From: a virus
Taxonomy: Duplodnaviria > Heunggongvirae > Uroviricota > Caudoviricetes
IMG/VR virus record: IMGVR_UViG_3300013094_000021
DNA: 64,000 nucleotides
Strand: one strand, 5' to 3'
How positions within the stretch are numbered: the stretch's first letter is position 1; every line of letters begins with the position of its first letter. The notes below the pieces were generated by a model. The model worked only from the letters and a program-made list of their open reading frames with translations. It did no database searches and was not told the DNA's origin. Made by a program: the position numbers and the translations under genes. This document shows, piece by piece, positions 10,850 to 60,178 of the stretch.

Positions 10850-11713
10850 ATGAAAACCAATCTACGCAAAGCAACTAAAGACTTCATGCTCGGAACCGAC
10901 CCCGAACTATTGCTTTCTCACGGCGGACAACCTGCAAAGTTTTTCGGACAAGCCCATGGAAAATTCGGACTTGACGGGAACGGCAGAACTTGCGAATTGA
11001 GAGTTGACCCTTCCGCCAATCCTCTCGAATTGGTTTCTCAAATCCACACTCTTTTCAAGGATTATGCCAAGAAATATCCAGTCTCTCTTAAATTCAATTG
11101 GGATGCTGGCTCGTTTGTTCACGGCTTTCCTATCGGCGGACACGTTCATTTTGGCGTCTCAAAGTTCAACCTAGACCACGCAACCGCAAGCGAAGTTATT
11201 TCAAATTATTGTGGCGCGCTATCTCTATGTATTGAAGATACAAAAGAGGCGAAAAGCCGCCGTCAAATCAAGGAATATGGCGGCTATCACGATTTCAGAC
11301 CCCAAGCGCACGGTTTTGAACACCGCAGTTTTTCAAGCTGGCTAACCAGTCCGGCGGTTGCTTCGGCGGTTTTGTGCCTCTGCAAGACGGTAATGTTTGA
11401 AATGCTCAACAATAAAGCGTTTTCTCCTACTCAATATTTCGACGCCAATACCTTCCACAAGGTAGAAAAGCAAGACATTAAAAAGAAATTTCCTTACGTT
11501 TGGAAAGAAATAACCGAAATGCAGCTTTATCCTAGATACAAAAAGCACATTGACGTTATCCATTTTCTAATTACAAAAGATTTGAGTTGGTATCCTAAAA
11601 ACTCTCTTAAAGAGGTTTGGGGGCTAACAGAATTCGCAGTTAAGGAAGAGCGAAAGATGATTTCACTAGACGAAATTTGGAAAACCAACAACAAAAATGA
11701 GCATAATTTTTAA
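10850..11713 (+). CDS. YbdK/GCS2-like carboxylate-amine ligase (amidoligase)
   Basis: N-terminal GTDPELLL (GxDxE) and GGHVHFGV (HxHxG) motifs typical of glutamine-synthetase-like amidoligases; paralogue of 20169. Confidence 0.5.
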   Translation: MKTNLRKATKDFMLGTDPELLLSHGGQPAKFFGQAHGKFGLDGNGRTCELRVDPSANPLELVSQIHTLFKDYAKKYPVSLKFNWDAGSFVHGFPIGGHVHFGVSKFNLDHATASEVISNYCGALSLCIEDTKEAKSRRQIKEYGGYHDFRPQAHGFEHRSFSSWLTSPAVASAVLCLCKTVMFEMLNNKAFSPTQYFDANTFHKVEKQDIKKKFPYVWKEITEMQLYPRYKKHIDVIHFLITKDLSWYPKNSLKEVWGLTEFAVKEERKMISLDEIWKTNNKNEHNF

Positions 11714-15258: not shown

Positions 15259-16101
15259 ATGTGCCGAATCGCAATTTTCCACAATTCAATTAAACGCTCC
15301 GAAGCTATCTCTATCTTGGAGAATATGCTTGGCGCAAACACACACGGGTGCGGCGAAGCCTATATAAAGGACGGCAAGTTTGTAGTTAATAAATACGCTC
15401 TTTCTCTAACGAATGTTTTGAAGCGCGGCAAACCATTCCTTAATCATCTTGGCGGACACCAAGGCTATACATTAGTCCATCTTCGCGCGGTTAGTGTCGG
15501 CGTTATTTGCCGCGATAATAGCCATCCTTTTGTATCTATGAACGGCAGAATTTGCCTAGTTCATAATGGAACTTGGAAGCAACATCGCCCACTTAATATG
15601 TATCTTCAAACCTGCTTGGGCTATAAATCCACTACTGACACGGCAGCAGCTACCGAATTGATTTCCAGAATTGGCGGCGAAGACTTTACCGAATCATTTG
15701 ATGACGCTGGCGTATTTTGTTTTTTAAATCAAAAAGGCGAGTTGCATATTTCAAAAACTAGCGGACAACTTGCAATTACTCGCCGCGAAGACAAATCAAT
15801 TTTGATTGCTTCCGAATTGGATGACGATAAGTATAAAAATCAAGAATTCGCAAGAGGTTATTACAAATTCGATTTGAACGCAAAAGTTATCAAATACAAG
15901 CCCAAAGAATACCATTGGCAAGGTCAATCATTCTCTGGCGGCAGTCGCGGATATGGAGTCTCCGATTGGTATCAAAGAACCTACGGACACGGTGCATTGC
16001 CAGCGCATTATCATGGCGAATCCAATCTTAAATATGATGCCGAAACCAATAATTTCGTTAGACAACCTAATGGCGGCATGGCTTACATGGGCGACGAATA
16101 A
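15259..16101 (+). CDS. class-II (Ntn) glutamine amidotransferase-like protein (second copy)
   Basis: MCRIAI N-terminus, HGCGEA, CLVHNGTW; Gly/Tyr-rich C-terminus. Confidence 0.5.
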   Translation: MCRIAIFHNSIKRSEAISILENMLGANTHGCGEAYIKDGKFVVNKYALSLTNVLKRGKPFLNHLGGHQGYTLVHLRAVSVGVICRDNSHPFVSMNGRICLVHNGTWKQHRPLNMYLQTCLGYKSTTDTAAATELISRIGGEDFTESFDDAGVFCFLNQKGELHISKTSGQLAITRREDKSILIASELDDDKYKNQEFARGYYKFDLNAKVIKYKPKEYHWQGQSFSGGSRGYGVSDWYQRTYGHGALPAHYHGESNLKYDAETNNFVRQPNGGMAYMGDE

Positions 16102-20168: not shown

Positions 20169-21065
20169 ATGAATAAAAATAACCAGTTCACTATCGGCGG
20201 CGACCCAGAGGTTTTTATCTCCGGCAAAAACGGCGAAATTCATTCATCCATTCCTATCCTTAAGCGCGACAAGCATAATCCGATTGTTCTTGACAAGAAA
20301 AGCGGCGTAAAGACTTATGCCGACAATTCTCTGGCGGAAATGGCTTTCAATCCAAGCAAAAGCAAGAAAGAGTTTGTCGAAAAATACCGCAAAGCCTTCC
20401 TCGGACTCCAAAAATATCTTGGCAAGAATTATCGAATCAAAATTCAATCCGCACACTTCTTTAAGGAAAACGAGCTTGAAGCCGCACATGGAATTGACCC
20501 GATGCAAGTCGGTTGTTCTCCTGAATTTAACCATTGGAAGCGCGAAGTTAATCAGCTTGGCGAATTCACCAATACAATGCGTTCCGGCTCGTCTCATATT
20601 CACATTGGACATGAAATGTTCAAAGATATCAACAACAAGGAGCGCGCCTTGAAGATGATTGAAATTTTCCTTGGTTGCTCCTCTGTCATTTGGGACAATG
20701 ACAAGACTTCTTCCGTTCGCCGCGAAAAATATGGCACAAGCGGCTCGTTTCGCCCCACCGATTATGGATTTGAAACGCGCTTTATGTCCAACTATATGCT
20801 CAATTCTCCGAAATTGGTTGAATTGGCATACGATTTGATTGAATTCTCTCTTTCCTTTGTTTTTAACGACAAAGACGCCGAAATTCTCTCAAAGGTTAGT
20901 GTTGAAGACGTTCAAAATGCAATTAATAAATGCGACAAAGATTTGGCCGTTTCGGTTTTGAAACAGGCCGGACTTACCGAAGAACTCTTCAAAAGAGTCG
21001 TCGAGCAATCCAAAAAGAGCTATTCCACGAAAGATTTCTACAAGGAGTGGGATATCAAAGTTTAA
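20169..21065 (+). CDS. YbdK/GCS2-like amidoligase
   Basis: GGDPEVFI and SSHIHIGHE motifs; paralogue of 10850. Confidence 0.5.
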   Translation: MNKNNQFTIGGDPEVFISGKNGEIHSSIPILKRDKHNPIVLDKKSGVKTYADNSLAEMAFNPSKSKKEFVEKYRKAFLGLQKYLGKNYRIKIQSAHFFKENELEAAHGIDPMQVGCSPEFNHWKREVNQLGEFTNTMRSGSSHIHIGHEMFKDINNKERALKMIEIFLGCSSVIWDNDKTSSVRREKYGTSGSFRPTDYGFETRFMSNYMLNSPKLVELAYDLIEFSLSFVFNDKDAEILSKVSVEDVQNAINKCDKDLAVSVLKQAGLTEELFKRVVEQSKKSYSTKDFYKEWDIKV

Positions 21066-21897: not shown

Positions 21898-22548
21898 ATG
21901 AATAAAACCAAAAGAATCGCCTACGTTATCGGCGTCGGCAATCAAGATTACGGCTATGGCAATTGGATGCAGATAGATAGATTCACAAACGATATTCGCG
22001 AGGCTAATTTTTGCATAGGTCTTGGCGGCAGCGACGTTTCACCAAGTTTTTATAATATGCCAGACAGCGGGCTTTGCCATTCCGTTTATTCTGTGGATAT
22101 TCAGGAATACAAAGACTACAAAAAAGCGATTGAATTGAAGAAAAAAATCGTCGGCATTTGCAAAGGTAGCCAATGGCTTTCAGTTTTGGCGGGCGGCAAA
22201 CTTTTCCAGCATATTGACCACGACTATATCCACAAAATCAAAACCTTTGATGGAAAAGAGCTTTTAACCAATAGCCTACATCATCAAATGAGCGACTTGG
22301 AAGAATTGGCCGAAAACTCCGATTACAAATTGCTCGCATGGTCTGAAAGTCTTTCCAATTTTCATATTGACGGAAATAGCGATGACAGAAAATGCAGCAA
22401 AGAACCGGAAGCAATTCTCTTTCCGAAAATCAATGGACTCGGCTTTCAAATGCACCCAGAAATGATTTTTAAGTCGGCTGGCAAGAATCATCCTTTTATT
22501 AATTGGAGCAGAGAAATACTTAATAAATTTTTGGATAATAAATTGTGA
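21898..22548 (+). CDS. class-I glutamine amidotransferase-like / peptidase C26 (gamma-glutamyl hydrolase-like)
   Basis: IGLGGSDVSPSFYN, ICKGSQWLSVLAGG, HHQM, FQMHPE (Cys-His catalytic pair context). Confidence 0.55.
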   Translation: MNKTKRIAYVIGVGNQDYGYGNWMQIDRFTNDIREANFCIGLGGSDVSPSFYNMPDSGLCHSVYSVDIQEYKDYKKAIELKKKIVGICKGSQWLSVLAGGKLFQHIDHDYIHKIKTFDGKELLTNSLHHQMSDLEELAENSDYKLLAWSESLSNFHIDGNSDDRKCSKEPEAILFPKINGLGFQMHPEMIFKSAGKNHPFINWSREILNKFLDNKL

Positions 22549-22883: not shown

Positions 22884-23675
22884 TTGAAAACAATCAATCT
22901 CTACAATCTTAAGAATGTTAAAGTTATCTTATTTCCAGATAACCAGCCTCACGTTATCATTGAAAACATTCAAGCTGGCGATGAAGTTAGACTTGTCGCG
23001 CCACTTCGCACAAGTCTTGAAGTCCTTCAAATGCTGGAAGTATCGAATGCCATAGATGAAATTGGCGCAATCAAGAAAGATTTGGTAATTCCATACCTAA
23101 TGGGCGCAAGATTCGACAGAATCATGCAAACCGGAGACAGTTTCGACCTTAAAGTAATTGCTAATTTGATTAATTCTTGCAATTTTCCAGTAGTTAATCT
23201 TTTTGATGTTCACAGCAAGGTTTCCACTGATTTAATTAAAAACTCTCGCAGCCATAACAATAGCAAGCTTTTAAAGGCTTACGACAAGAAAAATGTTGTT
23301 TTGATTTGCCCAGACAAAGGCGCGCTAGGACGAGTTGACTTTTACAAGCAAAATCTTGATATTAAAGACGTTGTTTATTGTGAAAAAAGCCGCGATTTGA
23401 GCAACGGCAACTTAACTCTGACCGTTAAAAATCCTGAAAAATGCGAAGGGCAAAATTGCGTTTGTGTTGATGACATTGCCGATGGCGGTGGGACGTTTCT
23501 TGCTATCGCCTCTCAAATCAATCCCGCACATTTTACTCTTATAGTTAGCCACGGCATTTTTAGCAAAGGTTTTTTAAAATTAGAGGAGTTTTTTGACGAA
23601 ATTATTACGAGCAACAGCTATCGAAAAAACTACGAAAGTAATATAGTTAAGGTGGTAGATTTAAATCTCTATTGA
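22884..23675 (+). CDS. ribose-phosphate pyrophosphokinase (Prs)-like protein; possibly an ADP-ribose pyrophosphokinase (Adps-like)
   Basis: IPYLMGARFDR (cf. IPYFGYARQDR), VCVDDIADGGGTF PRPP-binding loop. Confidence 0.6.
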   Translation: MKTINLYNLKNVKVILFPDNQPHVIIENIQAGDEVRLVAPLRTSLEVLQMLEVSNAIDEIGAIKKDLVIPYLMGARFDRIMQTGDSFDLKVIANLINSCNFPVVNLFDVHSKVSTDLIKNSRSHNNSKLLKAYDKKNVVLICPDKGALGRVDFYKQNLDIKDVVYCEKSRDLSNGNLTLTVKNPEKCEGQNCVCVDDIADGGGTFLAIASQINPAHFTLIVSHGIFSKGFLKLEEFFDEIITSNSYRKNYESNIVKVVDLNLY

Positions 23676-23771: not shown

Positions 23772-25235
23772 ATGAATCTAAAAACCAATTCTTTTCTTTT
23801 TTGCGACTTCTATAAGTGCGGCCACCCTTTCCAATATCCAGACAAGACTCAATTTGTTTACATTAATTGGACGGCGCGCGGCTCTCGCCTTGAAGGAATT
23901 AATGACATGGTATTTTTCGGCCTTCAATATTTTATTAAAGGCTATCTTATCCAAAACTTTAATGATAATTTTTTCAAACGTCCAAAAGACGAAGTTATGG
24001 CCGAATATAAGCGCATTATTCGCAATTCTCTTGGCGGCGATTTGCCTACTTATAGCCATATTGAAAAGCTTCACGATTTAGGTTATTTGCCTATTAAAAT
24101 CAAAGCTCTTCCAGAGGGCGTTAAAGTTCCTATGCGCGTTCCCTGTTTGACTATACTCAACACGCTTGAAGACTTCTATTGGCTTCCGAATTTTATTGAA
24201 ACCTTAATGTCGTCGGTTTTGTGGTTGCCTTGTAATTCGGCAACAATTGCCAATGCCTATCGAAAACTTTTGGATGGTTACGCCGAAAAAACAGGAATGC
24301 CAAAAGAATTTGTTCAATGGCAAGGACATGACTTTAGCTTTCGCGGAATGAGTTCCTTTGAAAGCGCAGTTACTTCCGGCATGGGTCACTTGCTATCCTT
24401 CACCGGAACGGACACCGTTCCGGCGATTGTAGGACTTGAACAATACTATAACGCCAATAGCGACAAAGAACTTATCGGCGGTAGCGTTCCAGCTACGGAG
24501 CATAGCGTTATGTGTTCTGGAGAGAAAGATAACGAACAAGAAACATTTGAAAGACTAATTACAAAAATCTATCCTAATGGAATCGTATCAGTTGTTTCTG
24601 ATACTTGGGATTTGTGGAGAGTTTTGACTGAATATCTTCCTAATTTGAAAGATAAAGTTATGGCTCGTAACGGAAAGCTTGTTATTCGTCCAGATAGCGG
24701 CGACCCCGTTTTGATTATTTGCGGCAATCCAGACGGAAAAACCGAAGCGGAGCGCAAAGGCGTAGTTGAATTGCTTTGGGATGTTTTCGGCGGAACGGTT
24801 ACAAGCAAAGGATTCAAGTTGCTTGACAGTCACGTTGGAGCGATTTATGGCGATAGCATCACGCTAAAAAGAGCGGATGAAATTTGCTCTCGCTTGATGG
24901 CTAAAGGATTCGCTTCGCAAGTCGTTTTCGGTATTGGAAGCTTCACCTATCAATACAATACTCGCGACACTCTAGGCTCTGCGGTTAAAGCCACTCATGT
25001 AACCATTGACGAAAAAGATATTAGTATCTCTAAAAATCCTATCACCGATAGCGGACTCAAAAAATCGGCCTGTGGATTGTTGCAGGTTGCAAAGGAAAAC
25101 GGAAAATACGTCCTGCATGATAACGTATCTTGGATTAAAGAAGCGCAGGGCGAATTGCAAACCGTATTTGTGGACGGAAAACTTGTTAAGGAATGGACGC
25201 TTTCAGAAGTAAGAAATAATCTAGCTAATTCTTAA
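23772..25235 (+). CDS. nadV: nicotinamide phosphoribosyltransferase family protein (NadV/NAMPT or Namat-like)
   Basis: DFYKCGH, FFGLQYFI, GTDTVPA, VPATEHS, VVSDTWD, IRPDSGDP all align with NAMPT signature blocks; 487 aa. Confidence 0.8.
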   Translation: MNLKTNSFLFCDFYKCGHPFQYPDKTQFVYINWTARGSRLEGINDMVFFGLQYFIKGYLIQNFNDNFFKRPKDEVMAEYKRIIRNSLGGDLPTYSHIEKLHDLGYLPIKIKALPEGVKVPMRVPCLTILNTLEDFYWLPNFIETLMSSVLWLPCNSATIANAYRKLLDGYAEKTGMPKEFVQWQGHDFSFRGMSSFESAVTSGMGHLLSFTGTDTVPAIVGLEQYYNANSDKELIGGSVPATEHSVMCSGEKDNEQETFERLITKIYPNGIVSVVSDTWDLWRVLTEYLPNLKDKVMARNGKLVIRPDSGDPVLIICGNPDGKTEAERKGVVELLWDVFGGTVTSKGFKLLDSHVGAIYGDSITLKRADEICSRLMAKGFASQVVFGIGSFTYQYNTRDTLGSAVKATHVTIDEKDISISKNPITDSGLKKSACGLLQVAKENGKYVLHDNVSWIKEAQGELQTVFVDGKLVKEWTLSEVRNNLANS

Positions 25236-26070: not shown

Positions 26071-27258
26071 ATGAAAGTTTTCACTAACGGCAGAGTTCCA
26101 ATCAAAAGCTGGTGCAATAATCCAGAAGCGGGAGCAATCGAACAGGCTACCAATCTCGCCAATCTTCCTTTTATCTTTAAATGGCTCGCTTTGATGCCTG
26201 ACACTCACCAAGGCTACGGAATGCCGATTGGCGGCGTTTTGGCGACCAATGGAGTCGTAATACCTAATGCGGTTGGTTCTGACATTGGCTGTGGAATGAG
26301 TTTCATCGAATCTGATATCAAAGAATGGGGCAGAGAGGATTTAATTGAAATTTTAAAGACTATCCGCGCCACTATTCCAGTTGGCTTCAACAAGCACAAA
26401 GTAAAGAAAACATCCGACTCAATTCCGTCTATTGAATCTCAATTCTCTAATGGCGAAAACCTCCCTATAATCAGAAAAGAGTTTGATAATGCTCTTTTTT
26501 CTGTTGGGACGCTCGGCGGCGGCAACCATTTTATTGAATTGCAAAAAAACGAATCCGGCAATCTTTGCGTTATGATTCATTCCGGCAGTCGAAATCTTGG
26601 CAAAAAAGTTGCCGACCATTACAATAAGCTCGCCGAAGAACTGAATTCAAAATACTTCTCTAGCGTTCCAAAAGAATATGATTTAGCTTTTTTGCCGCTT
26701 GATTCATCCGAAGCGCAGGAATATATTTCTGAAATGAATTATTGTGTTAATTTTGCATTGGCTAATCGTATGCAAATGATTTTTGAATGTAGAATGGCTA
26801 TTTGCGAGGCTTTTCAAAACAAGGTTGAAAAGGTTAATTTTTCTAATTTTATTAATATACCCCACAATTACGCCAGACTGGAAAATCATTTCGGCGAAAA
26901 TGTTATGGTTCATCGCAAGGGAGCGACCTCTGCGAAATTAAATGAATTAGGATTAATTCCGGGTTCGCAAGGTTCTAGTAGCTATGTCGTTCGCGGCAAA
27001 GGAAATGTCAATAGTTTTTCCAGTTGCTCGCACGGCGCGGGCAGAAAACTTGGGCGCAAAGAAGCTCAAAGAACGCTCAACATCGAAGAGGAAAAAAATC
27101 GTTTGGAAAAACTTGGCGTAATCCACGCCATTAGAAGCGTTGATGATTTAGATGAGGCTGCGGGCTCCTATAAGGACATTGACGTAGTTATGGAAGAGCA
27201 AAAGGATTTGATTGAAATCGTCCAAAAACTTCAACCTCTGGCGGTTGTAAAAGGGTAA
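26071..27258 (+). CDS. rtcB: RNA-splicing ligase RtcB
   Basis: MPDTHQGYGMPIGGV, GSDIGCGM, GGGNHFIEL, PHNYA, SCSHGAGR conserved RtcB metal/GTP-binding motifs; 395 aa. Confidence 0.85.
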   Translation: MKVFTNGRVPIKSWCNNPEAGAIEQATNLANLPFIFKWLALMPDTHQGYGMPIGGVLATNGVVIPNAVGSDIGCGMSFIESDIKEWGREDLIEILKTIRATIPVGFNKHKVKKTSDSIPSIESQFSNGENLPIIRKEFDNALFSVGTLGGGNHFIELQKNESGNLCVMIHSGSRNLGKKVADHYNKLAEELNSKYFSSVPKEYDLAFLPLDSSEAQEYISEMNYCVNFALANRMQMIFECRMAICEAFQNKVEKVNFSNFINIPHNYARLENHFGENVMVHRKGATSAKLNELGLIPGSQGSSSYVVRGKGNVNSFSSCSHGAGRKLGRKEAQRTLNIEEEKNRLEKLGVIHAIRSVDDLDEAAGSYKDIDVVMEEQKDLIEIVQKLQPLAVVKG

Positions 27259-27378: not shown

Positions 27379-28686
27379 ATGAAATCAAATAAAAAAGAAT
27401 TGGTTGAAAAATTAACCGAAGAAGGCGCGAAAGCCGCGCATATTACGCCTTATCAATCGCTTCGCCGCTCGGTTTTATCCACACTCCTTTTTGAAGACAA
27501 CTTTTATGAAGACGGAATTTCCGTATCTGAAAGAATTAAAGAATTAATTAAAGCCGTTTCGCCGGAAAAAGTCGCGGATTTGGCGATTGAAGCCAGAACT
27601 AAATTCAAGCTTCGCCATATACCTCTTTTTTTGGTTCGCGAATTGGCTCGTTACGAAAAATCAAGATACCTTGTGGCCGAAACTTTGTCGGCGGTTATTC
27701 AAAGACCGGACGAATTGGGGGAATTCCTTTCTCTTTACAACAAAGACGGAAAGCAACCTTTGGCCGCATCCGTCAAAAAAGGCTTGTCTCGCGCCTTCCA
27801 AAAGTTTGACGAATATTCTCTTCAAAAGTATAACGGTGGAACTCCCGAATATAAACTTCGCGACGTTCTTTTCCTCTGTCACGCCAAACCAAAAAATGAA
27901 GAGCAGGAAAATCTTTGGAAAAAATTGATTAATAATCAATTGGAAACGCCGGAAACTTGGGAAACCAAAATCGGCAAAGATGGTAAAAAAGAAGCTTGGG
28001 AGTCTCTTTTGCACGAAAGAAAGCTTGGCTCTCTCGCTCTTTTGAGAAATTTGAGAAACTTCAAAGTAAATGGAGTATCAGAGAAATTAATTAAATCCGC
28101 CATTTCGGAAATGAAAACCGATAGAGTCCTGCCTTTTAGGTTTATCACCGCCGCGAAATATTATCCTTCCCTTGAATCAGAACTGGAAGGCGCGATGTTT
28201 AAATGCTCAAAAAACATTGATAAAGTCAGCGGAAAGACTCTTCTTCTTATTGACGTTTCCGGCTCAATGGATAAGCCTCTATCCTCAAATTCTGAAATGA
28301 CTAGACTTGAGGCGGCTAATTCTTTGGCTATTCTAGCGCGCGAAATCTGCGAAGAAGTTAAAGTATTTACTTTTTCCAAGCAAATCATTGAAATTCCAGC
28401 TAGACGCGGATTTTCCTTGAGAGACGCTATTAACAGTAGCCAGCCTCACAAAGACACCTATCTGGGCGCGGCAATTAAATATTTAAACGAAAATGAATCA
28501 TTTGAAAGATTAATTGTTATTTCTGACGAACAATCGGACGATGAAGTTCAATTTCCTAAATGCCCGAAAGCATACATGATAAATGTAGCCAACAACAAAA
28601 ACGGAGTAGGCTACAATAAAAATTGGATTAATATTTCTGGTATGTCGGAGTCGGTTTTCGACTATATTCAAAATATTGAAGAATAA
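27379..28686 (+). CDS. rsr: Ro60-related protein Rsr (TROVE domain + C-terminal vWA/MIDAS)
   Basis: N-terminal TROVE-like region (LLFEDNFYEDG..., HIPLFLVRELA), C-terminal LLLIDVSGSMDKPL MIDAS motif; adjacent to rtcB as in bacterial rsr-rtcB operons. Confidence 0.6.
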   Translation: MKSNKKELVEKLTEEGAKAAHITPYQSLRRSVLSTLLFEDNFYEDGISVSERIKELIKAVSPEKVADLAIEARTKFKLRHIPLFLVRELARYEKSRYLVAETLSAVIQRPDELGEFLSLYNKDGKQPLAASVKKGLSRAFQKFDEYSLQKYNGGTPEYKLRDVLFLCHAKPKNEEQENLWKKLINNQLETPETWETKIGKDGKKEAWESLLHERKLGSLALLRNLRNFKVNGVSEKLIKSAISEMKTDRVLPFRFITAAKYYPSLESELEGAMFKCSKNIDKVSGKTLLLIDVSGSMDKPLSSNSEMTRLEAANSLAILAREICEEVKVFTFSKQIIEIPARRGFSLRDAINSSQPHKDTYLGAAIKYLNENESFERLIVISDEQSDDEVQFPKCPKAYMINVANNKNGVGYNKNWINISGMSESVFDYIQNIEE

Positions 28687-29837: not shown

Positions 29838-30149
29838 ATGTTTGATTACAAAAAAGCCAACGCTTCCAGCGAATTTCCATCCGCCGAAAAAGTAAAGGAA
29901 ATTTACGATTCTGTTCACGTTGATTTTACCAAGGAGAATTTTCAAAAACTGCTTGAGAGAAATGTTGAAATGGACTTGGCCTTAAGTCACCTAATCGCCT
30001 TTTCTCGTCGAATCTGGGATGAAACTGAAATGGTTTCCGGCTGCATAAAGCTAAAAGATATCGAGGAGATTTTGAAAAGAAATGATTTAGTTCTTGGTCA
30101 AATCGCCGAAGCGCCTTTAGTCCTAAAAAAAACCGAAAACAATCCTTGA
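29838..30149 (+). CDS. hypothetical protein (paralogue of 30639..31016)
   Basis: shared LLERNVEMDLALS / LLIRNIEMDLMLS and ERNDxxLG blocks. Confidence 0.4.
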   Translation: MFDYKKANASSEFPSAEKVKEIYDSVHVDFTKENFQKLLERNVEMDLALSHLIAFSRRIWDETEMVSGCIKLKDIEEILKRNDLVLGQIAEAPLVLKKTENNP

Positions 30150-30196: not shown

Positions 30197-30592
30197 ATGA
30201 ATACCAATCAAAACACCGAAGTTACCTCCAGCCGCAAAGTTGGCCGCCCGATTAATCCTAATGCTACGCGCGAAATCTTTTTGAGAAAGACCAAGGACGC
30301 CGCCGGAAACGAAGTTCTTACGCCGCTCGGCAAAGGGCGCCGTGGCTCTGGAAATTTCGTTAAGGTGGTTGTCCATCGCTCCATTGACTCCTCTAACTAT
30401 ATTCATGGTCAAACTCCGATTGTCGGCGAACCAGTGAATGTTTCGGTTGAGCCGCAAGCCTCCGAACAAAAAAGCAATCCTGTTTCCGTGACCGTGCATA
30501 TCAGCGAGGAAAAAACCGAAATTCCGATTACTCAACAAAGTCAATCGGTTTCCTCCGCCGAATCCGAAAATCCAATTCCCGCCTCCGCATGA
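30197..30592 (+). CDS. hypothetical protein with AT-hook-like KVGRPINP motif
   Basis: 131-aa ORF, Ser/Pro-rich. Confidence 0.4.
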   Translation: MNTNQNTEVTSSRKVGRPINPNATREIFLRKTKDAAGNEVLTPLGKGRRGSGNFVKVVVHRSIDSSNYIHGQTPIVGEPVNVSVEPQASEQKSNPVSVTVHISEEKTEIPITQQSQSVSSAESENPIPASA

Positions 30593-30638: not shown

Positions 30639-31016
30639 ATGTTTTTTTATCGTTTTCTTTTGGTTTTTGCCAGTTTATTTATACTGGCGGCATCAAATCT
30701 CGAAAAACTCAAACGACGAAAATTCTGGAAGGTAAAAACTCAAATGCTTGATGACGAAACATTAAGATTGAAGTCAATGGAGATTTTCAATTCAATTAAT
30801 ATTGAATATTCGCCGGAAAACCTTAACAAACTTCTAATTAGAAACATTGAAATGGATTTGATGCTTTCGGAAGTTATTTGTGCCTCTAAATTTGCTTGGC
30901 CCGCCGCCAAAACTGTTACCGGCTATATATCTCTACATCCAATTGAAAAAACACTTGAAAGAAACGACGAAATACTTGGAAAGCTCTGCAAACCAAACGA
31001 ATTAAAAAGCCAGTAG
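30639..31016 (+). CDS. hypothetical protein with N-terminal signal/TM
   Basis: paralogue of 29838. Confidence 0.4.
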   Translation: MFFYRFLLVFASLFILAASNLEKLKRRKFWKVKTQMLDDETLRLKSMEIFNSINIEYSPENLNKLLIRNIEMDLMLSEVICASKFAWPAAKTVTGYISLHPIEKTLERNDEILGKLCKPNELKSQ

Positions 31017-31232: not shown

Positions 31233-31487
31233 ATGAAAGAATTTGAAGGCTTTGAATTTATCAATCCAAACGTAGAGGATTTATCAAGTATAGTAGTTAA
31301 AGGCTATAACAAAATCGCCTATTGGAACCCTTTGCTTGCAAAACCTTCTTTCTTCACCGGACACTCTGGCCGAACTCTTATATATATGAAGAATAACTTC
31401 GCGGCCTGTCAATACTTTTATAGAGTAATTAATACGCCGCCGAAACAAAAATTTCCATGCGACAAACCTTTTCCTTACGGATTTTGA
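31233..31487 (+). CDS. small protein with conserved C-terminal FPCDKPFPYGF tail (family member 1)
   Basis: start placed at MKEFEGF just after preceding stop; C-terminal motif shared by six ORFs. Confidence 0.4.
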   Translation: MKEFEGFEFINPNVEDLSSIVVKGYNKIAYWNPLLAKPSFFTGHSGRTLIYMKNNFAACQYFYRVINTPPKQKFPCDKPFPYGF

Positions 31488-31946
31488 ATGAATATTCCAG
31501 AAGGATATCAAATAATTGACGACCCAGATTATATCATAAAATCTGGGGATAAATTTCTCGCGCAAATACCATCAAGTAAAATACATGATTTTGTTGATAG
31601 TGTTGGAGCCACATTAAGATACGTCAAAGTGTATTTAGGAAAAATCGTTGTTCTCTCAAAAATAGAAAAACCAATTAATTCTATTGAAGAAAGTAAAAAT
31701 CAATTAAAATTAGACATTCAAGTTCCAGACTCAAAAGTTCCGCCCGAAGGCTACGAAATTTTAGATAAAAAATTTTACTCAAAATATTACATAAAAGACT
31801 CCGACCTTGTTTTTGCAAATGGGCAATGGATTAAGGCTAATAGGATTTTAATTCGCTCCTATAATGTAAAATATAACGAAAAATACATAACCAACAAAGA
31901 AGTCATTATTGCTTGCAAAGGCAAGCCCTATCCTTATGGATATTAA
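31488..31946 (+). CDS. protein with C-terminal CKGKPYPYGY tail (family member 2)
   Basis: ATG immediately after preceding TGA. Confidence 0.4.
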   Translation: MNIPEGYQIIDDPDYIIKSGDKFLAQIPSSKIHDFVDSVGATLRYVKVYLGKIVVLSKIEKPINSIEESKNQLKLDIQVPDSKVPPEGYEILDKKFYSKYYIKDSDLVFANGQWIKANRILIRSYNVKYNEKYITNKEVIIACKGKPYPYGY

Positions 31947-32184
31947 AGAGAATAAATTTGAAGATATTACTCATTTGGATGACCTTGTTTTGGAAAGGAA
32001 TGAATTATTTGATTATTTTTTCGATTACGCAGACCACAAAAAAGAAAAATTCCGCATCAGGAGCATACTTTTAAAAAACAAGGTTTCCATATTGAAAAAA
32101 AATTGGTATGGAATTAAAATCTATCGAAAATTGAAATATCCAGTCCTGTTTGAGACTGAAAAAAAATTTCCTCACGGCTATTAA
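31936..32184 (+). CDS. small protein with C-terminal EKKFPHGY tail (family member 3)
   Basis: start ATG overlaps the YGY-stop codons of the upstream gene. Confidence 0.35.
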   Translation: MDIKENKFEDITHLDDLVLERNELFDYFFDYADHKKEKFRIRSILLKNKVSILKKNWYGIKIYRKLKYPVLFETEKKFPHGY

Positions 32185-32224
32185 AAATTCTTGACAAATT
32201 CAATTTGTCCTTTATTATAAAGGC

Positions 32225-32461
32225 ATGAAAAACAATTTCTCTAAACAATACTCAACGAAAAACATCCAATTCCAATACAGCCTTGCCTCTAAAAAGTGGC
32301 AGTTTGATATCACCAAAATCAACCACACGCTTCTTTATCCTTGTGTCGGGGGCGTTGCCGTGGCGCGCAAGGTTGCGGCGGCAATTGAAGGCGGCTTGAC
32401 TCGCAGCAATCAAATTGACGCATTGGCGCGCGGACAAATCAAGCATTTGACCGGCTTTTAA
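32225..32461 (+). CDS. hypothetical protein
   Basis: 78-aa ORF behind consensus promoter. Confidence 0.35.
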   Translation: MKNNFSKQYSTKNIQFQYSLASKKWQFDITKINHTLLYPCVGGVAVARKVAAAIEGGLTRSNQIDALARGQIKHLTGF

Positions 32462-35477: not shown

Positions 35478-36209
35478 ATGAAAAACACAAAAAAGCCTGT
35501 CATTGGTATTACCGGCCCCTCTCAATTCACCGCTCAAGTCCGTGAAATGGTGTCCGATTTTTTCGGCTCAATTCCTTTGGATATCAACCAGAACGGCTAT
35601 AACGATTTGAAGCAAATCGCGGAAGTTTGCGATGGCTTTATTTTTGCTGGCGGCGTTGATTTGTTTCCAGCGACCCTAGACAGAGAGATTTTGACCGGAA
35701 AAGGCTACTCAAAATTTGACCGCAAGCGCGACCTTCGCGAAATTAATCTAATTAAAATTGCGGGCGAACAAGGTAAATCAATTTTCGGCATTTGTCGCGG
35801 CCATCAAATGTTGCTCTCCAATCGCGGCCTTTATCTTATTCCAGATATTAGCGGAATTTCCGATGTTTGCCATAGCCCCAGAGAGATTGAAACCAATAAC
35901 GAGCCAATCCATTTCGTTCGTGGCATCGGAAAAGGTGTCGCTGAATTCGGCGAAAGAGAATTAGTTAATAGTTATCACCATCAAGCCATCCTTTACGGAG
36001 ATAAAGCCAAACAAAATAAAGAAGTGGAAATTCTTGGTATATCTAGCGTGTCTTTTGCCAGAGGCGAAAATACCGGCGTTAAAATCGTCGAACTCGCCAG
36101 AGGCGACGGCTTTCTTTCCTGCCAATGGCATCCAGAACTAGACTGGAAAAACGTCGAATCATCTAAAAAAGTTTTGACAATGGCAAAGAAAATGTTCAAT
36201 ATTGAATAA
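35478..36209 (+). CDS. class-I glutamine amidotransferase-like / peptidase C26 (second copy)
   Basis: FIFAGGVDLFP, ICRGHQML, NSYHHQAI, CQWHPE. Confidence 0.55.
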   Translation: MKNTKKPVIGITGPSQFTAQVREMVSDFFGSIPLDINQNGYNDLKQIAEVCDGFIFAGGVDLFPATLDREILTGKGYSKFDRKRDLREINLIKIAGEQGKSIFGICRGHQMLLSNRGLYLIPDISGISDVCHSPREIETNNEPIHFVRGIGKGVAEFGERELVNSYHHQAILYGDKAKQNKEVEILGISSVSFARGENTGVKIVELARGDGFLSCQWHPELDWKNVESSKKVLTMAKKMFNIE

Positions 36210-38031: not shown

Positions 38032-38766
38032 TTATTTCATGTATTGTAATTTTCTATTCAATATCCTTGAAATTGAGGCGTAAGATATATTTCCTATTTT
38101 ATTAGCAATTTGAGTTAAAGATAATCCTTTTTCTCTTAAATAGAATATTAATTCTATTTGTTTTTTGTTAAGTTTTTTGATAGAGAGTGATAGATTCTTT
38201 TTATGGGATTCGGATTTTGGTTTATTAGAAAGAGCTAATGAAATCTTTTTTCTTGTATGTTCTGTGATAACTTGTTTTTTTCTTGACTCTGATATTTTTT
38301 TAAGAGCTTCTGTTGAATGTCTTTTTCCAAACATACCGTTATTTTTGCCCGTAACTTTTAGTTTGTTTTCAATTTTTTTCATGTGATGGTTTTCTCCAGA
38401 GTGTTTCTCGCGATACTCTTGGTTTTTCCAAGTATTTTTCATTATTAATGAAATATTATTTGAGGCCGTTTCGCCTCCGTCGGTCATATTAACTAAACGA
38501 TAATTTTGTTCTTTTAAATGCTTAATCCAGTAAATTTCTCTCTCTTTCCAATTGTTTTCATCGCACGATTCAAGAAGCTGAATAGTTGGGACTAAACTCT
38601 CTTTTAATAAAGACTCTATCCAAAATTTTCTATGGTTTTTCTTTTCATACTTGACATTTGATATGTGTTGTGATAATCTCTTTTTTAGAGAAGCTTTTGT
38701 TTTACCAACGTAACGTATCTCGTTAGTAATAGGATGCTTTAAAACATAAATATTAATTTGATTCAT
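38032..38766 (-). CDS. GIY-YIG homing endonuclease
   Basis: NIYVLKHPITNEIRYVGKT (GIY...YVG), downstream R, E, N..DGG motifs, C-terminal HTH; only minus-strand gene in a + block. Confidence 0.7.
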   Translation of the reverse strand: MNQINIYVLKHPITNEIRYVGKTKASLKKRLSQHISNVKYEKKNHRKFWIESLLKESLVPTIQLLESCDENNWKEREIYWIKHLKEQNYRLVNMTDGGETASNNISLIMKNTWKNQEYREKHSGENHHMKKIENKLKVTGKNNGMFGKRHSTEALKKISESRKKQVITEHTRKKISLALSNKPKSESHKKNLSLSIKKLNKKQIELIFYLREKGLSLTQIANKIGNISYASISRILNRKLQYMK

Positions 38767-39778: not shown

Positions 39779-39826
39779 TATTTCTTGACATTAAAAAGTA
39801 AATTCCTTATTATAGTATAACAAACT

Positions 39827-40159
39827 ATGCCGACAAAAAAACAGCTTGATTTCTACGAGAAGAATAAATCAGAATTTGATTATTTTTTTGAAGCTAGAGG
39901 TAGAGCGTATGATTTAATTTACGAGGGGGAAATTCTGGCGACCGACTATGTAGCCGGACTTAGAAAAAGTAGATTCAGTGAAAAGAAAAGGTTTGCCTTG
40001 CAAAAAGTCTGTCTAAATCCTGACTCAACTTCAACGGTTGAACGCTATGCGAAAGATTTTGATTTGCCTTGGATTATTCTCGCTTGCCGCCCGAAGAAGA
40101 AAACTATAAGTAAAAATAAAATCTTTCCTTCTGAAAAGGATTTTCCGCATGGATTCTAA
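39827..40159 (+). CDS. small protein with C-terminal KIFPSEKDFPHGF tail (family member 4)
   Basis: C-terminal motif family; stop overlaps next start. Confidence 0.4.
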   Translation: MPTKKQLDFYEKNKSEFDYFFEARGRAYDLIYEGEILATDYVAGLRKSRFSEKKRFALQKVCLNPDSTSTVERYAKDFDLPWIILACRPKKKTISKNKIFPSEKDFPHGF

Positions 40160-40466
40160 TTTAATAAAAGAATTGCACGAAAAAAATTCCGAAACCTTCG
40201 ATAAGGTTTTAACTGGCTATTTAGGTTACGGATTGGAGTCTTTAAAAAAACAAGGATATGTATTGGCCGACCATCCTAGAGACATTATTAAATCTGGGTG
40301 GTTTTTTTTAGCGGCCAATCACACTTTAGGAAGAGCGACCATTTATGGCGGTAAAACATACGAGTATCTTTATAATACCTACGGTCTTCAATTATTTCTA
40401 AAAAGAGCCCCGTTAATTCCAAAAAAGATTTTCGCCTGTGAAAAGGAATATCCCCATGGATTCTGA
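40149..40466 (+). CDS. small protein with C-terminal KIFACEKEYPHGF tail (family member 5)
   Basis: start ATG lies inside PHGF codons of upstream gene. Confidence 0.4.
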   Translation: MDSNLIKELHEKNSETFDKVLTGYLGYGLESLKKQGYVLADHPRDIIKSGWFFLAANHTLGRATIYGGKTYEYLYNTYGLQLFLKRAPLIPKKIFACEKEYPHGF

Positions 40467-40785
40467 AAAAATAAAAGAATTAAAAGAAAAATACCTAGAG
40501 TCTTTTAATAAAGAATTAATTAATAAATATGGAAAAGATTTGAGTCTTTTTGAATCTCAAGGCTTTGTTTTGGCCGATAACCCGAATGATATTTTAAAAA
40601 GACGCGGCATTTTTGCAAGTTCCCAAGGCTACTCTCGTTTGTATTTGGATGAAGCCTATGATTATGCTGGAAAAACCTACGAGAGACTTTTTGAAAGTCA
40701 CGGAGTAGTTTTATTTTTGAAAAAAATAAAAGTTAATCCAAAGAAGATTTTTCCATGTGAAAGGGATTTTCCCTATGGCTATTGA
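40456..40785 (+). CDS. small protein with C-terminal KIFPCERDFPYGY tail (family member 6)
   Basis: start taken at MDSEKIKEL, overlapping upstream PHGF-stop; clear paralogue of 40149. Confidence 0.4.
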   Translation: MDSEKIKELKEKYLESFNKELINKYGKDLSLFESQGFVLADNPNDILKRRGIFASSQGYSRLYLDEAYDYAGKTYERLFESHGVVLFLKKIKVNPKKIFPCERDFPYGY

Positions 40786-40842
40786 TTTGACTTGACGAAA
40801 ACATAGGAATGATTTAAAATCAATTCGTCGCCAGTTAAATAC

Positions 40843-41037
40843 ATGAAAAACATTAAACAAGTAATTAAAAACCTTCAATCAAAAGGTTTCAAAACTGAAT
40901 CCGGCTCTGGCTCAAGATTGAAGATTATTCCGCCGAATAAGGCGATGGAAATATATAGTCTTCATATTGACAATACCGGCAAAGCCTATTTTCCACTTAA
41001 ACGATTCGCCAGAAAGAATTGGGGGATTCAAATTTAA
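40843..41037 (+). CDS. small hypothetical protein
   Basis: 64 aa. Confidence 0.3.
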   Translation: MKNIKQVIKNLQSKGFKTESGSGSRLKIIPPNKAMEIYSLHIDNTGKAYFPLKRFARKNWGIQI

Positions 41038-42356: not shown

Positions 42357-42376
42357 ATAATTAATAAATCAACAGT

Positions 42377-42406
42377 CCGCCAGAGAAATCTGGCGGATTT
42401 TTTTTC
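42377..42406 (+). terminator. rho-independent terminator
   Basis: ccgccag-agaaat-ctggcgg + T9. Confidence 0.6.
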
Positions 42407-57324: not shown

Positions 57325-57380
57325 AAAAAATCCTCAAAATAAATAATTGACAAATTAGATTTGTTCTTTATTATTAGAGC

Positions 57381-60149: not shown

Positions 60150-60178
60150 TTGACAAATTAGATTTGTTCTTTATTATT
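60150..60178 (+). promoter_or_regulatory. consensus promoter, 39-nt exact duplicate of the one at 57335..57373
   Basis: aaataaataattgacaaattagatttgttctttattatt identical at both sites. Confidence 0.55.

Follow-up and report, generated by a model that had tools for sequence, protein, structure and literature searches.

The stretch of DNA analysed here (64 kb, referred to below as the window; coordinates are window positions) comes from an uncultured large phage, IMG/VR record IMGVR_UViG_3300013094_000021. At 39827-40785 it carries three small genes whose products end in versions of the same short peptide tail. These genes are named gene 1, gene 2 and gene 3 in the direction of transcription and together form cluster 2; three further genes with such a tail lie upstream and form cluster 1. 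An earlier, sequence-only reading had placed the three genes of cluster 2 at these positions, with products of about 105-110 amino acids (aa) and head-to-tail overlaps. The open reading frame (ORF) list and the sequence bear out all of this (110, 105 and 109 aa), and the gene callers of public assemblies choose the same three starts. The overlaps between genes 1 and 2 (40149-40159) and between genes 2 and 3 (40456-40466) are 11 nucleotides (nt) each (ATGGATTCTAA / ATGGATTCTGA). In gene 1, the cAT-Gga codons (His-Gly) contain the ATG of gene 2 at 40149, and in gene 2 the corresponding codons contain the ATG of gene 3 at 40456.

A six-frame scan of stop-to-stop segments of at least 30 codons shows how restricted this ending is. 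Of all such segments in the window, exactly six have the ending [FY]P[HY]G[FY] (at 31487, 31946, 32184, 40159, 40466 and 40785), and the motif never occurs internally in such a segment. The chance expectation is 0.005 endings of this kind, with a maximum of one, in 200 first-order Markov simulations of the window. This confirms that the tail is shared within the window far beyond chance. The longer pattern [FY]-x-[TCS]-[DE]-[KR]-x-[YF]-P-[FYHW]-G-[YF]-stop fits all three genes of cluster 2 and the cluster 1 genes that end at 31487 and 32184, and the gene at 31488-31946 fits the family tail pattern over its last seven residues only. The features of both clusters are collected in Table 1.

Table 1. 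Positions of the tail-family genes, their tail codons, associated signals and further features of the window.
Feature	Position	Strand	Size	Remarks
Gene 1, cluster 2	39827-40159	+	110 aa	ends ...EKDFPHGF; tail ...NKIFPSEKDFPHGF; end ...IFPSEKDFPHGF
Gene 2, cluster 2	40149-40466	+	105 aa	ends ...EKEYPHGF; tail ...KKIFACEKEYPHGF; end ...IFACEKEYPHGF
Gene 3, cluster 2	40456-40785	+	109 aa	ends ...ERDFPYGY; tail ...KKIFPCERDFPYGY; end ...IFPCERDFPYGY
Codons of the 14-residue tail, gene 1	40115..40156	+
Codons of the 14-residue tail, gene 2	40422..40463	+
Codons of the 14-residue tail, gene 3	40741..40782	+
Shine-Dalgarno-like AAGGA	40136..40140	+		inside Glu-Lys-Asp tail codons of gene 1, 8 nt before gene 2 ATG
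Shine-Dalgarno-like AAGGA	40443..40447	+		inside Glu-Lys-Glu tail codons of gene 2, 8 nt before gene 3 ATG
Cluster 1 member	31233..31487	+	84 aa	tail ...KFPCDKPFPYGF
Cluster 1 member	31488..31946	+	152 aa	two body-domain copies; tail ...KGKPYPYGY
Cluster 1 member	31936..32184	+	82 aa	tail ...ETEKKFPHGY; starts inside Tyr-Gly codons of the preceding gene
Sigma-70-type promoter-like TTGACA-N17-TATTAT	39785..39813	+		ends 13 nt before gene 1 ATG; consensus only
Weaker promoter-like TTGACG-N17-TAAAAT	40792..40820	+		directly after gene 3; 10/12 matches
Starts of the 15 promoter-like sites	9881, 30146, 32191, 36214, 39785, 42407, 42772, 51657, 52501, 53582, 53900, 54878, 57347, 60150, 60949	+
Intrinsic-terminator-like hairpin with T run	42374..42399	+
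Gene with N-terminal GRPxNPNATR motif	30197..30592	+	131 aa	upstream of cluster 1
Gene for GS..K.YPPNK..FYSLH...GK..FPL.RF	40843..41037	+	64 aa	just after cluster 2
tRNA-Met(CAT)	47967-48042			phage-encoded
tRNA-Arg(TCT)	48118-48193			phage-encoded

The tail had been taken as the mark of a family, and this family proves far larger than could be seen in the window, with 50 unique members on about ten metagenomic phage contigs. Word-indexed protein searches with a single sequence and with six sequences returned the same contig only. One further protein, P0007, with the ending ...DKPYTFGY, came to light in an exhaustive profile search that covered 1.84 billion representative proteins. Its contig, L214, is a different phage that also has T4_Y16D, and six of its ORFs end in ...KPRFKT[DE]KPYP[YF]GY. 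A 12-sequence profile then found 24 more tail-bearing proteins, and a relaxed DNA pattern led to one genuine IMG/VR contig (IMGVR_UViG_3300035171_000016, 147.8 kb) with at least nine members. The 50 proteins are those of the window, of L214, L215, L216, L217, L219 and L220, and of the profile search; the members from the IMG/VR contig (L233, L234 and L236) are left out of this count. There are six to at least nine copies per phage, mostly in tandem arrays, on large contigs of low GC content. The window and L214 have six members each, L219 and L220 have seven each, in both cases within 20 kb, and L215 (part of a 165.6 kb contig) and L217 have two each.

Comparison with databases of known proteins and genomes gave little. 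Pfam and PHROGs contain nothing significant for the six window proteins or for 26 family members, and a profile search of PDB sequences found no relative of the family. Neither a family member nor a 26-mer containing the tail has a match in 50,697 GenBank phage records. The canonical-tail pattern has no match in IMG/VR, none in GTDB genomes and one in JGI metagenomes. The relaxed pattern has nine chance-level matches in GTDB representative genomes, none of them with the upstream motif, and window-type tail codons gave chance matches only in IMG/VR, where the family is absent from all contigs except one. The motif strings do not occur in 8 million full-text papers, and topic literature searches gave nothing relevant. 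As judged from these searches, the family and its tail motif are previously undescribed, and they appear to be confined to a rare clade of phages and to have no copies in bacteria.

The canonical tail is about 14 residues long and reads K-P-R-F-K-[T/C/S]-D-K-P-Y-P-[F/Y]-G-Y-COOH (…KPRFKTDKPYPFGY). The full logo for the 50 tails is K-P-R-F-[K/P/E]-[T30 C13 S5]-[D34 E7]-K45-P45-[Y45 F5]-P49-[F34 Y12 H3 W1]-G50-[Y47 F3]-COOH. Glycine at -2 is invariant (50/50), and proline at -4 (49/50), phenylalanine at -11 (48/50), a threonine, cysteine or serine at -9 (48/50) and lysine at -7 (45/50) are nearly so; the residues at -1, -3 and -5 are aromatic in every tail. Pairwise identity is 68% in the tail versus 21% in the remainder of the protein, the body. 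No family member contains an internal copy of the tail, and proteins with two or three body domains bear a single one, at the extreme C-terminus. The family thus exists in several copies per genome, with a strictly terminal tail that is conserved at the peptide level. The tails of the window, of the form K-K-I-F-P-C-E-K-D-F-P-H-G-F, are the most divergent known: they are 40% identical to those of the other members, which share 76% among themselves.

The level at which selection acts can be read from the codons. Among the 31 tails with DNA sequence, the conserved residues are encoded by all four codons each of Pro and Gly, by five Arg codons, and by both codons each of Lys, Tyr and Phe. The stop codon that follows is TAA in 23 cases, TGA in seven and TAG in one. 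Since synonymous codons vary while the residues stay fixed, selection acts on the peptide.

The bodies are a good deal less uniform. They retain a sparse signature, P.GY..I.D.NYVI..GD.YY...W....G.T, that is, a few aromatic and glycine positions in a domain of about 60 residues. Where a window member deviates from the canonical tail, it also deviates at the conserved positions of the body. A hidden Markov model (HMM) of the body only, made from non-window members with their tails removed, was run against the window ORFs. It identifies 31488-31946 as the clearest body homolog of the canonical family in the window (E 3.8e-12), followed by gene 3 (E 0.004); gene 2 and the other genes of cluster 1 are not significant, and the body of gene 1 is not detected at all. 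Gene 2 is placed in the family because it is 45% identical to gene 3 (E 2e-30), so that the two are paralogs. Gene 1 has only its last ~37 residues in common with them (E 3e-6). The view of the three genes as one family therefore stands for the common tail and needs amending for the bodies, that of gene 1 not being detectably related. Over roughly 200 kb of phage DNA, all tails belong to small proteins that look like family members, and gene 1 provides the sole body that is not recognisably related. Since gene 1 carries the tail on an unrecognised body, the tail behaves as a module able to sit on different bodies. A 99-aa protein encoded at L214 4085-4384 begins with the family body signature (MNIPKGYYRLPSNAILKDGDLIY...) and has no tail, which indicates that the domain also exists without one.

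Structure prediction with AlphaFold2 (AF2) gives a similar picture for two members. The model of gene 3 (predicted local distance difference test, pLDDT, 81.5) has a long N-terminal helix at residues 3-25, a small alpha/beta core, and coil over the last ~19 residues (pLDDT 54-62). The model of P0017, a canonical member of 75 aa, was made from a 26-sequence alignment (pLDDT 76.7); it has a β-β-β-α-β core at residues 5-59 and a coil tail with a pLDDT of about 64. The tail is thus predicted to be unstructured. Neither model has a significant structural neighbour. The isoelectric points of the bodies range from 4.5 to 9.8, and this range rules out the idea that the proteins are DNA mimics.

The timing of expression bears on what these proteins might do. 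Exact copies of TTGACA-N16/17-TATTAT number 15 in the window, every one on the + strand, compared with an expectation of 0.05, and one of them precedes gene 1. Their spacers are alike (…AATT.AATTT.T.CTT), and the 28-mer at 57347 recurs unchanged at 60150. Some of these sites end only 6-13 nt before an ATG (32218 to 32225; 39813 to 39827), so that the mRNA leaders would be very short or absent. T4-type late promoters are not enriched in the window, and none is found near either cluster. The hairpin at the end of the region probably terminates a transcription unit that starts at 39785 or 40792. From these promoter-like sequences, the tail-family genes appear to be transcribed early, from promoters of the host type.

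Taken together, we consider it most useful to regard the tail as a portable C-terminal docking peptide on variable early proteins, and give this reading a probability of about 0.4. Each protein consists of a small, fast-evolving soluble domain followed by a flexible and nearly constant tail of 14 residues; genes 2 and 3 add an N-terminal helix of 33 residues. The tail would act in trans as a docking or recognition peptide that needs its free C-terminus. Through it, a range of variable early proteins would reach the same conserved partner, which might be a host machine or else a protein shared across the phage clade. The variable bodies would then supply differing specificities. A docking role and a common partner are what we infer from this architecture. 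Several points weigh against it. The docking partner is hypothetical, as is binding to it; the early timing is taken from the promoter consensus; and low pLDDT is a weak sign of disorder. Gene 1 apart, the tail occurs on this one domain family only, so the tail might function jointly with the domain, for instance in self-association. The conserved Thr/Cys/Ser and Lys residues would equally suit a modification site.

The overlapping arrangement of cluster 2 invites a different approach, in which the tail matters for the expression of the gene that follows. The cluster 2 tail codons GAAAAGGA, GAA AAG GA(T/A), supply a Shine-Dalgarno site before the embedded ATG, the change from Pro to Asp/Glu at tail position -6 placing AAGGA exactly 8 nt before it. 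Gene 3 keeps this arrangement, and there the embedded ATG at 40775 opens an ORF of only six codons. Cluster 2 is thus a clear example of dual coding, in which the codons of a conserved peptide also spell the ribosome-binding site of the next gene. As in the stop/start coupling of phage operons, the upstream stop lies beyond the next start, and the Shine-Dalgarno sequence lies in the upstream coding sequence at 8 nt from the ATG; this holds at both junctions. The overlap differs in its length, 11 nt versus the usual 1 or 4 nt, and in being reused at several junctions. The same 11-nt overlap (ATGGNTAYTRA) serves as the start of a following family gene at six junctions, spread over three phages (window 31936, 40149 and 40456; L214 5218; L219 9751 and 10001). 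It arises because Tyr/His-Gly codons contain ATG when the residue at -3 is Tyr (TAT) or His (CAT). RNA structure at the two cluster 2 junctions is not unusual compared with shuffled controls (z 0.12 and 0.00). Nothing in the sequence therefore forces the downstream starts to depend on upstream ribosomes, and independent initiation is equally possible. The translational coupling proposed in the sequence-only reading is plausible from the layout of the junctions.

Coupling would nevertheless not explain why the tail is conserved, given that canonical tails have no ATG, that promoters can follow the tail directly, and that synonymous codons are free to vary. In several cases the tail is followed directly by a TTGAC promoter-like sequence or by a gap, and not by a gene (window 32184 and 40785; L216; L219 2352 and 4948; L220 10558 and 13872), which argues against the tail as a cis-regulator of the downstream cistron. 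Judging by the codons, the overlaps are best seen as a side effect of the ATG in Tyr/His-Gly codons, reinforced in cluster 2 by the Shine-Dalgarno site, and AAGGA within the tail codons looks like a secondary adaptation to dual coding.

With this in mind the alternatives can be weighed, beginning with those that act in cis. The repeat might be a DNA or RNA element, composed of Shine-Dalgarno site, ATG and stop or serving in recombination, with the peptide as a mere by-product. The occurrence of GAAAAGGA-N8-ATG inside the tail codons of cluster 2 fits this idea, while the 31 tails do not: their amino acids are fixed and their synonymous positions vary freely. Canonical Phe-Gly tails contain neither a Shine-Dalgarno site nor an ATG, and two tails of the window (TAC-GGA at 31487 and CAC-GGC at 32184) also have no ATG. 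Such a cassette is almost certainly not what is conserved; as a general cause it is ruled out by codon usage, and all that is left of it is a local constraint of secondary rank, confined to cluster 2. It is also conceivable that the tail, rich in Pro, aromatic residues and Lys/Arg, causes arrest or slow release in the ribosomal exit tunnel and in this way sets the translation of the overlapping downstream gene. Its composition resembles that of tunnel-binding peptides, it always abuts the stop codon, and at six of the 31 junctions the next gene starts inside it, with a start within 13 nt of the stop at several others. However, several family genes precede a promoter-like sequence or a gap, as listed above, the downstream genes and their spacings vary, and no conserved or unusually stable RNA structure is seen at the junctions. 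Leader peptides of the SecM, MifM or TnaC type serve one specific downstream gene in a fixed RNA arrangement, which is not what is found here, and six to nine paralogs with folded, variable domains would be odd for regulators of this kind. A role as a nascent peptide is therefore hard to credit.

The remaining alternatives place the function in the finished protein. The tail could bind the conserved positions of the body, either within the same molecule as a form of autoinhibition or on a neighbouring member, giving homo- or hetero-oligomers. The near exclusivity of the tail to this domain family speaks for such self-association, as do the few conserved aromatic and glycine positions of the body and the paired divergence of tail and body in the window. 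Set against this are the single-chain AF2 models, which leave the tail as an undocked coil (pLDDT 54-65), gene 1, with its tail on an unrelated or unrecognisable body, and the multi-domain proteins, with one tail for two or three domains; self-association is unlikely on balance. The tail might instead be the recognition and acceptor site for a phage enzyme that modifies or ligates it at the terminal carboxylate, at Lys -7 or at the residue at -9. Here the hydroxyl or thiol group in 48 of 50 tails, the lysine in 45 of 50 and the strictly free C-terminus would be explained, and candidate enzymes exist in the carboxylate-amine ligases, amidotransferases and gamma-glutamyl-cyclotransferase of these phages. 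In the window these are the ligases at 10850-11713 and 20169-21065, a class-II GATase and two Peptidase_C26/GATase-I proteins, and the ligase set accompanies the family in the window, the 165.6 kb contig, L220 and L236. On the other hand, none of the enzymes adjoins a cluster, the distances being 4-29 kb. Ligase sets of the phiEco32 type occur in many phages without the tail family, so the co-occurrence may reflect only shared ancestry. Pfam and PHROGs reveal no maturase near the clusters of the type that acts on ribosomally synthesised and post-translationally modified peptides (RiPPs), and a conserved tail on a variable body reverses the usual leader/core logic; RiPP precursors combine a conserved leader with a variable core, whereas here the 14 C-terminal residues are conserved and a folded domain varies. 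Modification of the tail is accordingly quite unlikely. A C-terminal degron or protease decoy, which would send the early proteins to a host or phage protease so as to limit their lifetime or to saturate the protease, agrees with an exposed, flexible, aromatic-rich and strictly C-terminal peptide on a multi-copy and probably early family. The near-invariant 14 residues are nonetheless more specific than most degrons require and, to our knowledge, are unlike the known bacterial C-degrons, such as the LAA type of ssrA, which makes a degron decidedly improbable. Finally, the tail could be a sorting signal that directs variable cargo to the capsid, or to some other structure of the phage, for delivery to the next host. 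The same logic would apply: members of a polymorphic tandem family share a short, constant peptide at one end, and the phages have some T4-family genes. Yet the genes lie among host-type promoters in an apparent early region with no T4-type late promoter nearby, the window contains no structural genes, and the tail has no sequence similarity to the capsid-targeting signal of T4 or the cargo-loading signal of encapsulins. We consider sorting very unlikely.

The docking reading can be compared with known systems in which a short, constant peptide directs a whole set of variable proteins to a single machine, among them clamp-binding peptides, SSB tails, capsid-targeting sequences, F-box/PRANC proteins and degrons. 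C-terminal docking tails are found on Escherichia coli SSB (...DDDIPF), on T7 gp2.5 and gp4, with their C-terminal Phe, and on the T4/RB69 polymerase, gp33 and gp55, which bind the clamp. Like these, the phage tail is a short flexible peptide at the extreme C-terminus with an aromatic end, whose free carboxylate would matter and which would serve as a portable tether. The known tails are acidic and hydrophobic and occur on unrelated enzymes that share a hub, whereas the phage tail is basic, rich in Pro and aromatic residues, and nearly confined to one family. The consensus sequences of clamp-binding and SSB tails (QL[SD]LF, ...DDDIPF and the T4-type acidic-hydrophobic form) do not appear in the tail logo.

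The internal proteins of T4 carry an N-terminal capsid-targeting sequence of about 10 residues that is cleaved after Leu/Ile-x-Glu, and the cargo-loading peptide of encapsulins is C-terminal. The likeness lies in a polymorphic multi-copy family that has only a terminal address peptide of ~10-15 residues in common. The differences are that the T4 signal is N-terminal and cleaved, that the encapsulin consensus is another one, and that the phage genes are in a probable early region. An N-terminal signal with late or prohead expression, as in T4 internal proteins, is not seen here; the tail is C-terminal, and T4-type late promoters are missing near the clusters. A third comparison is offered by adaptors, namely the poxvirus ankyrin/PRANC F-box-like proteins and SspB, with its C-terminal ClpX-binding peptide, both of which combine a variable binding domain with a constant docking motif. 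The tail family shares with them a variable domain, a linker, a constant C-terminal peptide and several fast-diverging paralogs per genome, and it has no sequence or fold relationship to them. Thus, the tail family resembles docking tails, address peptides and viral adaptors in its logic, and falls within the sequence or positional definition of none of them.

It is tempting to speculate further that the tail is a universal address, by which a clade of large phages connects its fast-diversifying early proteins to a single conserved machine of the cell, such as a protease, the ribosome or the polymerase. The variable domains would then pick host targets, possibly defence proteins, for delivery by the constant tail. 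In a more exotic variant, the free C-terminus would be ligated to targets by the phage carboxylate-amine ligases, as a form of tagging similar to that by ubiquitin or Pup. This is an unlikely scenario. If it were true, the family would be the bacteriophage counterpart of adaptors of eukaryotic viruses, such as the poxvirus ankyrin/PRANC proteins. Irrespective of the exact role, the tail is a ready-made bait, and a synthetic peptide could fish out its partner. Such a partner would point either to a new weak point of the host that is exploited at an early stage of infection, or to a novel hub or modification system that the phage encodes.

Two genes are linked to the tail family in several phages. 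Homologs of the 131-aa gene lie directly upstream of tail-family arrays in four other contigs (L214 4572-4907, L215 2504-2803, L219 1055-1267 and L220 9069-9341), and the gene has no Pfam or PHROG match. Homologs of the 64-aa gene are found inside or beside the arrays, again in four other contigs (L215 4115-4267, L219 4473-4673, L220 11743-11940 and, on the minus strand, L236 589-780). The two genes could be functional partners of the tail family, or their position could reflect plain synteny among related phages. The 64-aa protein has a weak, sub-threshold match to HicA_toxin (E 0.042), and the order of elements in the family domain, β-β-β-α-β, recalls the N-terminal domain of HicB; a HicA-like neighbour beside the tail family would be reminiscent of HicA/HicB pairs. 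This identity is not borne out, as a PDB profile search of the 64-aa protein gave no support and no fold similarity to the HicB N-terminal domain was found. Just upstream of cluster 1 there is also a pair of paralogs (29838-30149 and 30639-31016), which are 43% identical over 74 residues (E 3e-21) and have no family annotation.

Nearly all sizeable ORFs of the window are on the + strand, and its GC content is about 0.36. Pfam matches include RtcB, Ro60/TROVE, NAMPT, a PRPP-synthetase-like protein, a UvrD-type helicase, a pyrimidine-dimer excision endonuclease and T4_Y16D, as well as a GIY-YIG endonuclease on the opposite strand, two COOH-NH2 ligases of the phiEco32 type, a class-II GATase and two Peptidase_C26/GATase-I proteins. 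The genes of this amidoligase set, which is unusually rich, are at 10850-11713, 15259-16101, 20169-21065, 21898-22548 and 35478-36209; relatives share these enzymes, and one of them adds a GGACT gamma-glutamyl cyclotransferase-like gene. In our reading, the window represents the early region of a large phage that is virulent and has some genes of the T4 family. Megablast of the region against GenBank phages found nothing similar. The same sequence is also present in a contig of a JGI freshwater metagenome and in two Logan assemblies, and the longest contig with these proteins is 115.7 kb. No additional member of the tail family is present in the 10 kb that precede the window. On the JGI contig, a TnpB/OrfB_IS605 (Cas12f-like) gene is located ~9 kb upstream of window position 1 (L223 124-1206, minus strand). 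Another assembly of the same phage, L222, holds a different minus-strand gene at this site, and the difference may be an insertion polymorphism.

Some neighbouring genes of the window form recognisable pairs. RtcB RNA ligase adjoins a Ro60/TROVE-vWA protein (26071-27258 and 27379-28686), a pair that accompanies Y RNAs in bacteria; Rfam at the gathering threshold recognised only the two tRNAs in the window, and no Y-like RNA. The PRPP-synthetase-like gene adjoins NAMPT (22884-23675 and 23772-25235), and the two would be a phage module for NAD salvage. The GIY-YIG homing-endonuclease-like gene (38032-38766, minus strand) is among the very few convincing minus-strand genes. It lies immediately upstream of the gene for the pyrimidine-dimer endonuclease and some 1 kb ahead of cluster 2.

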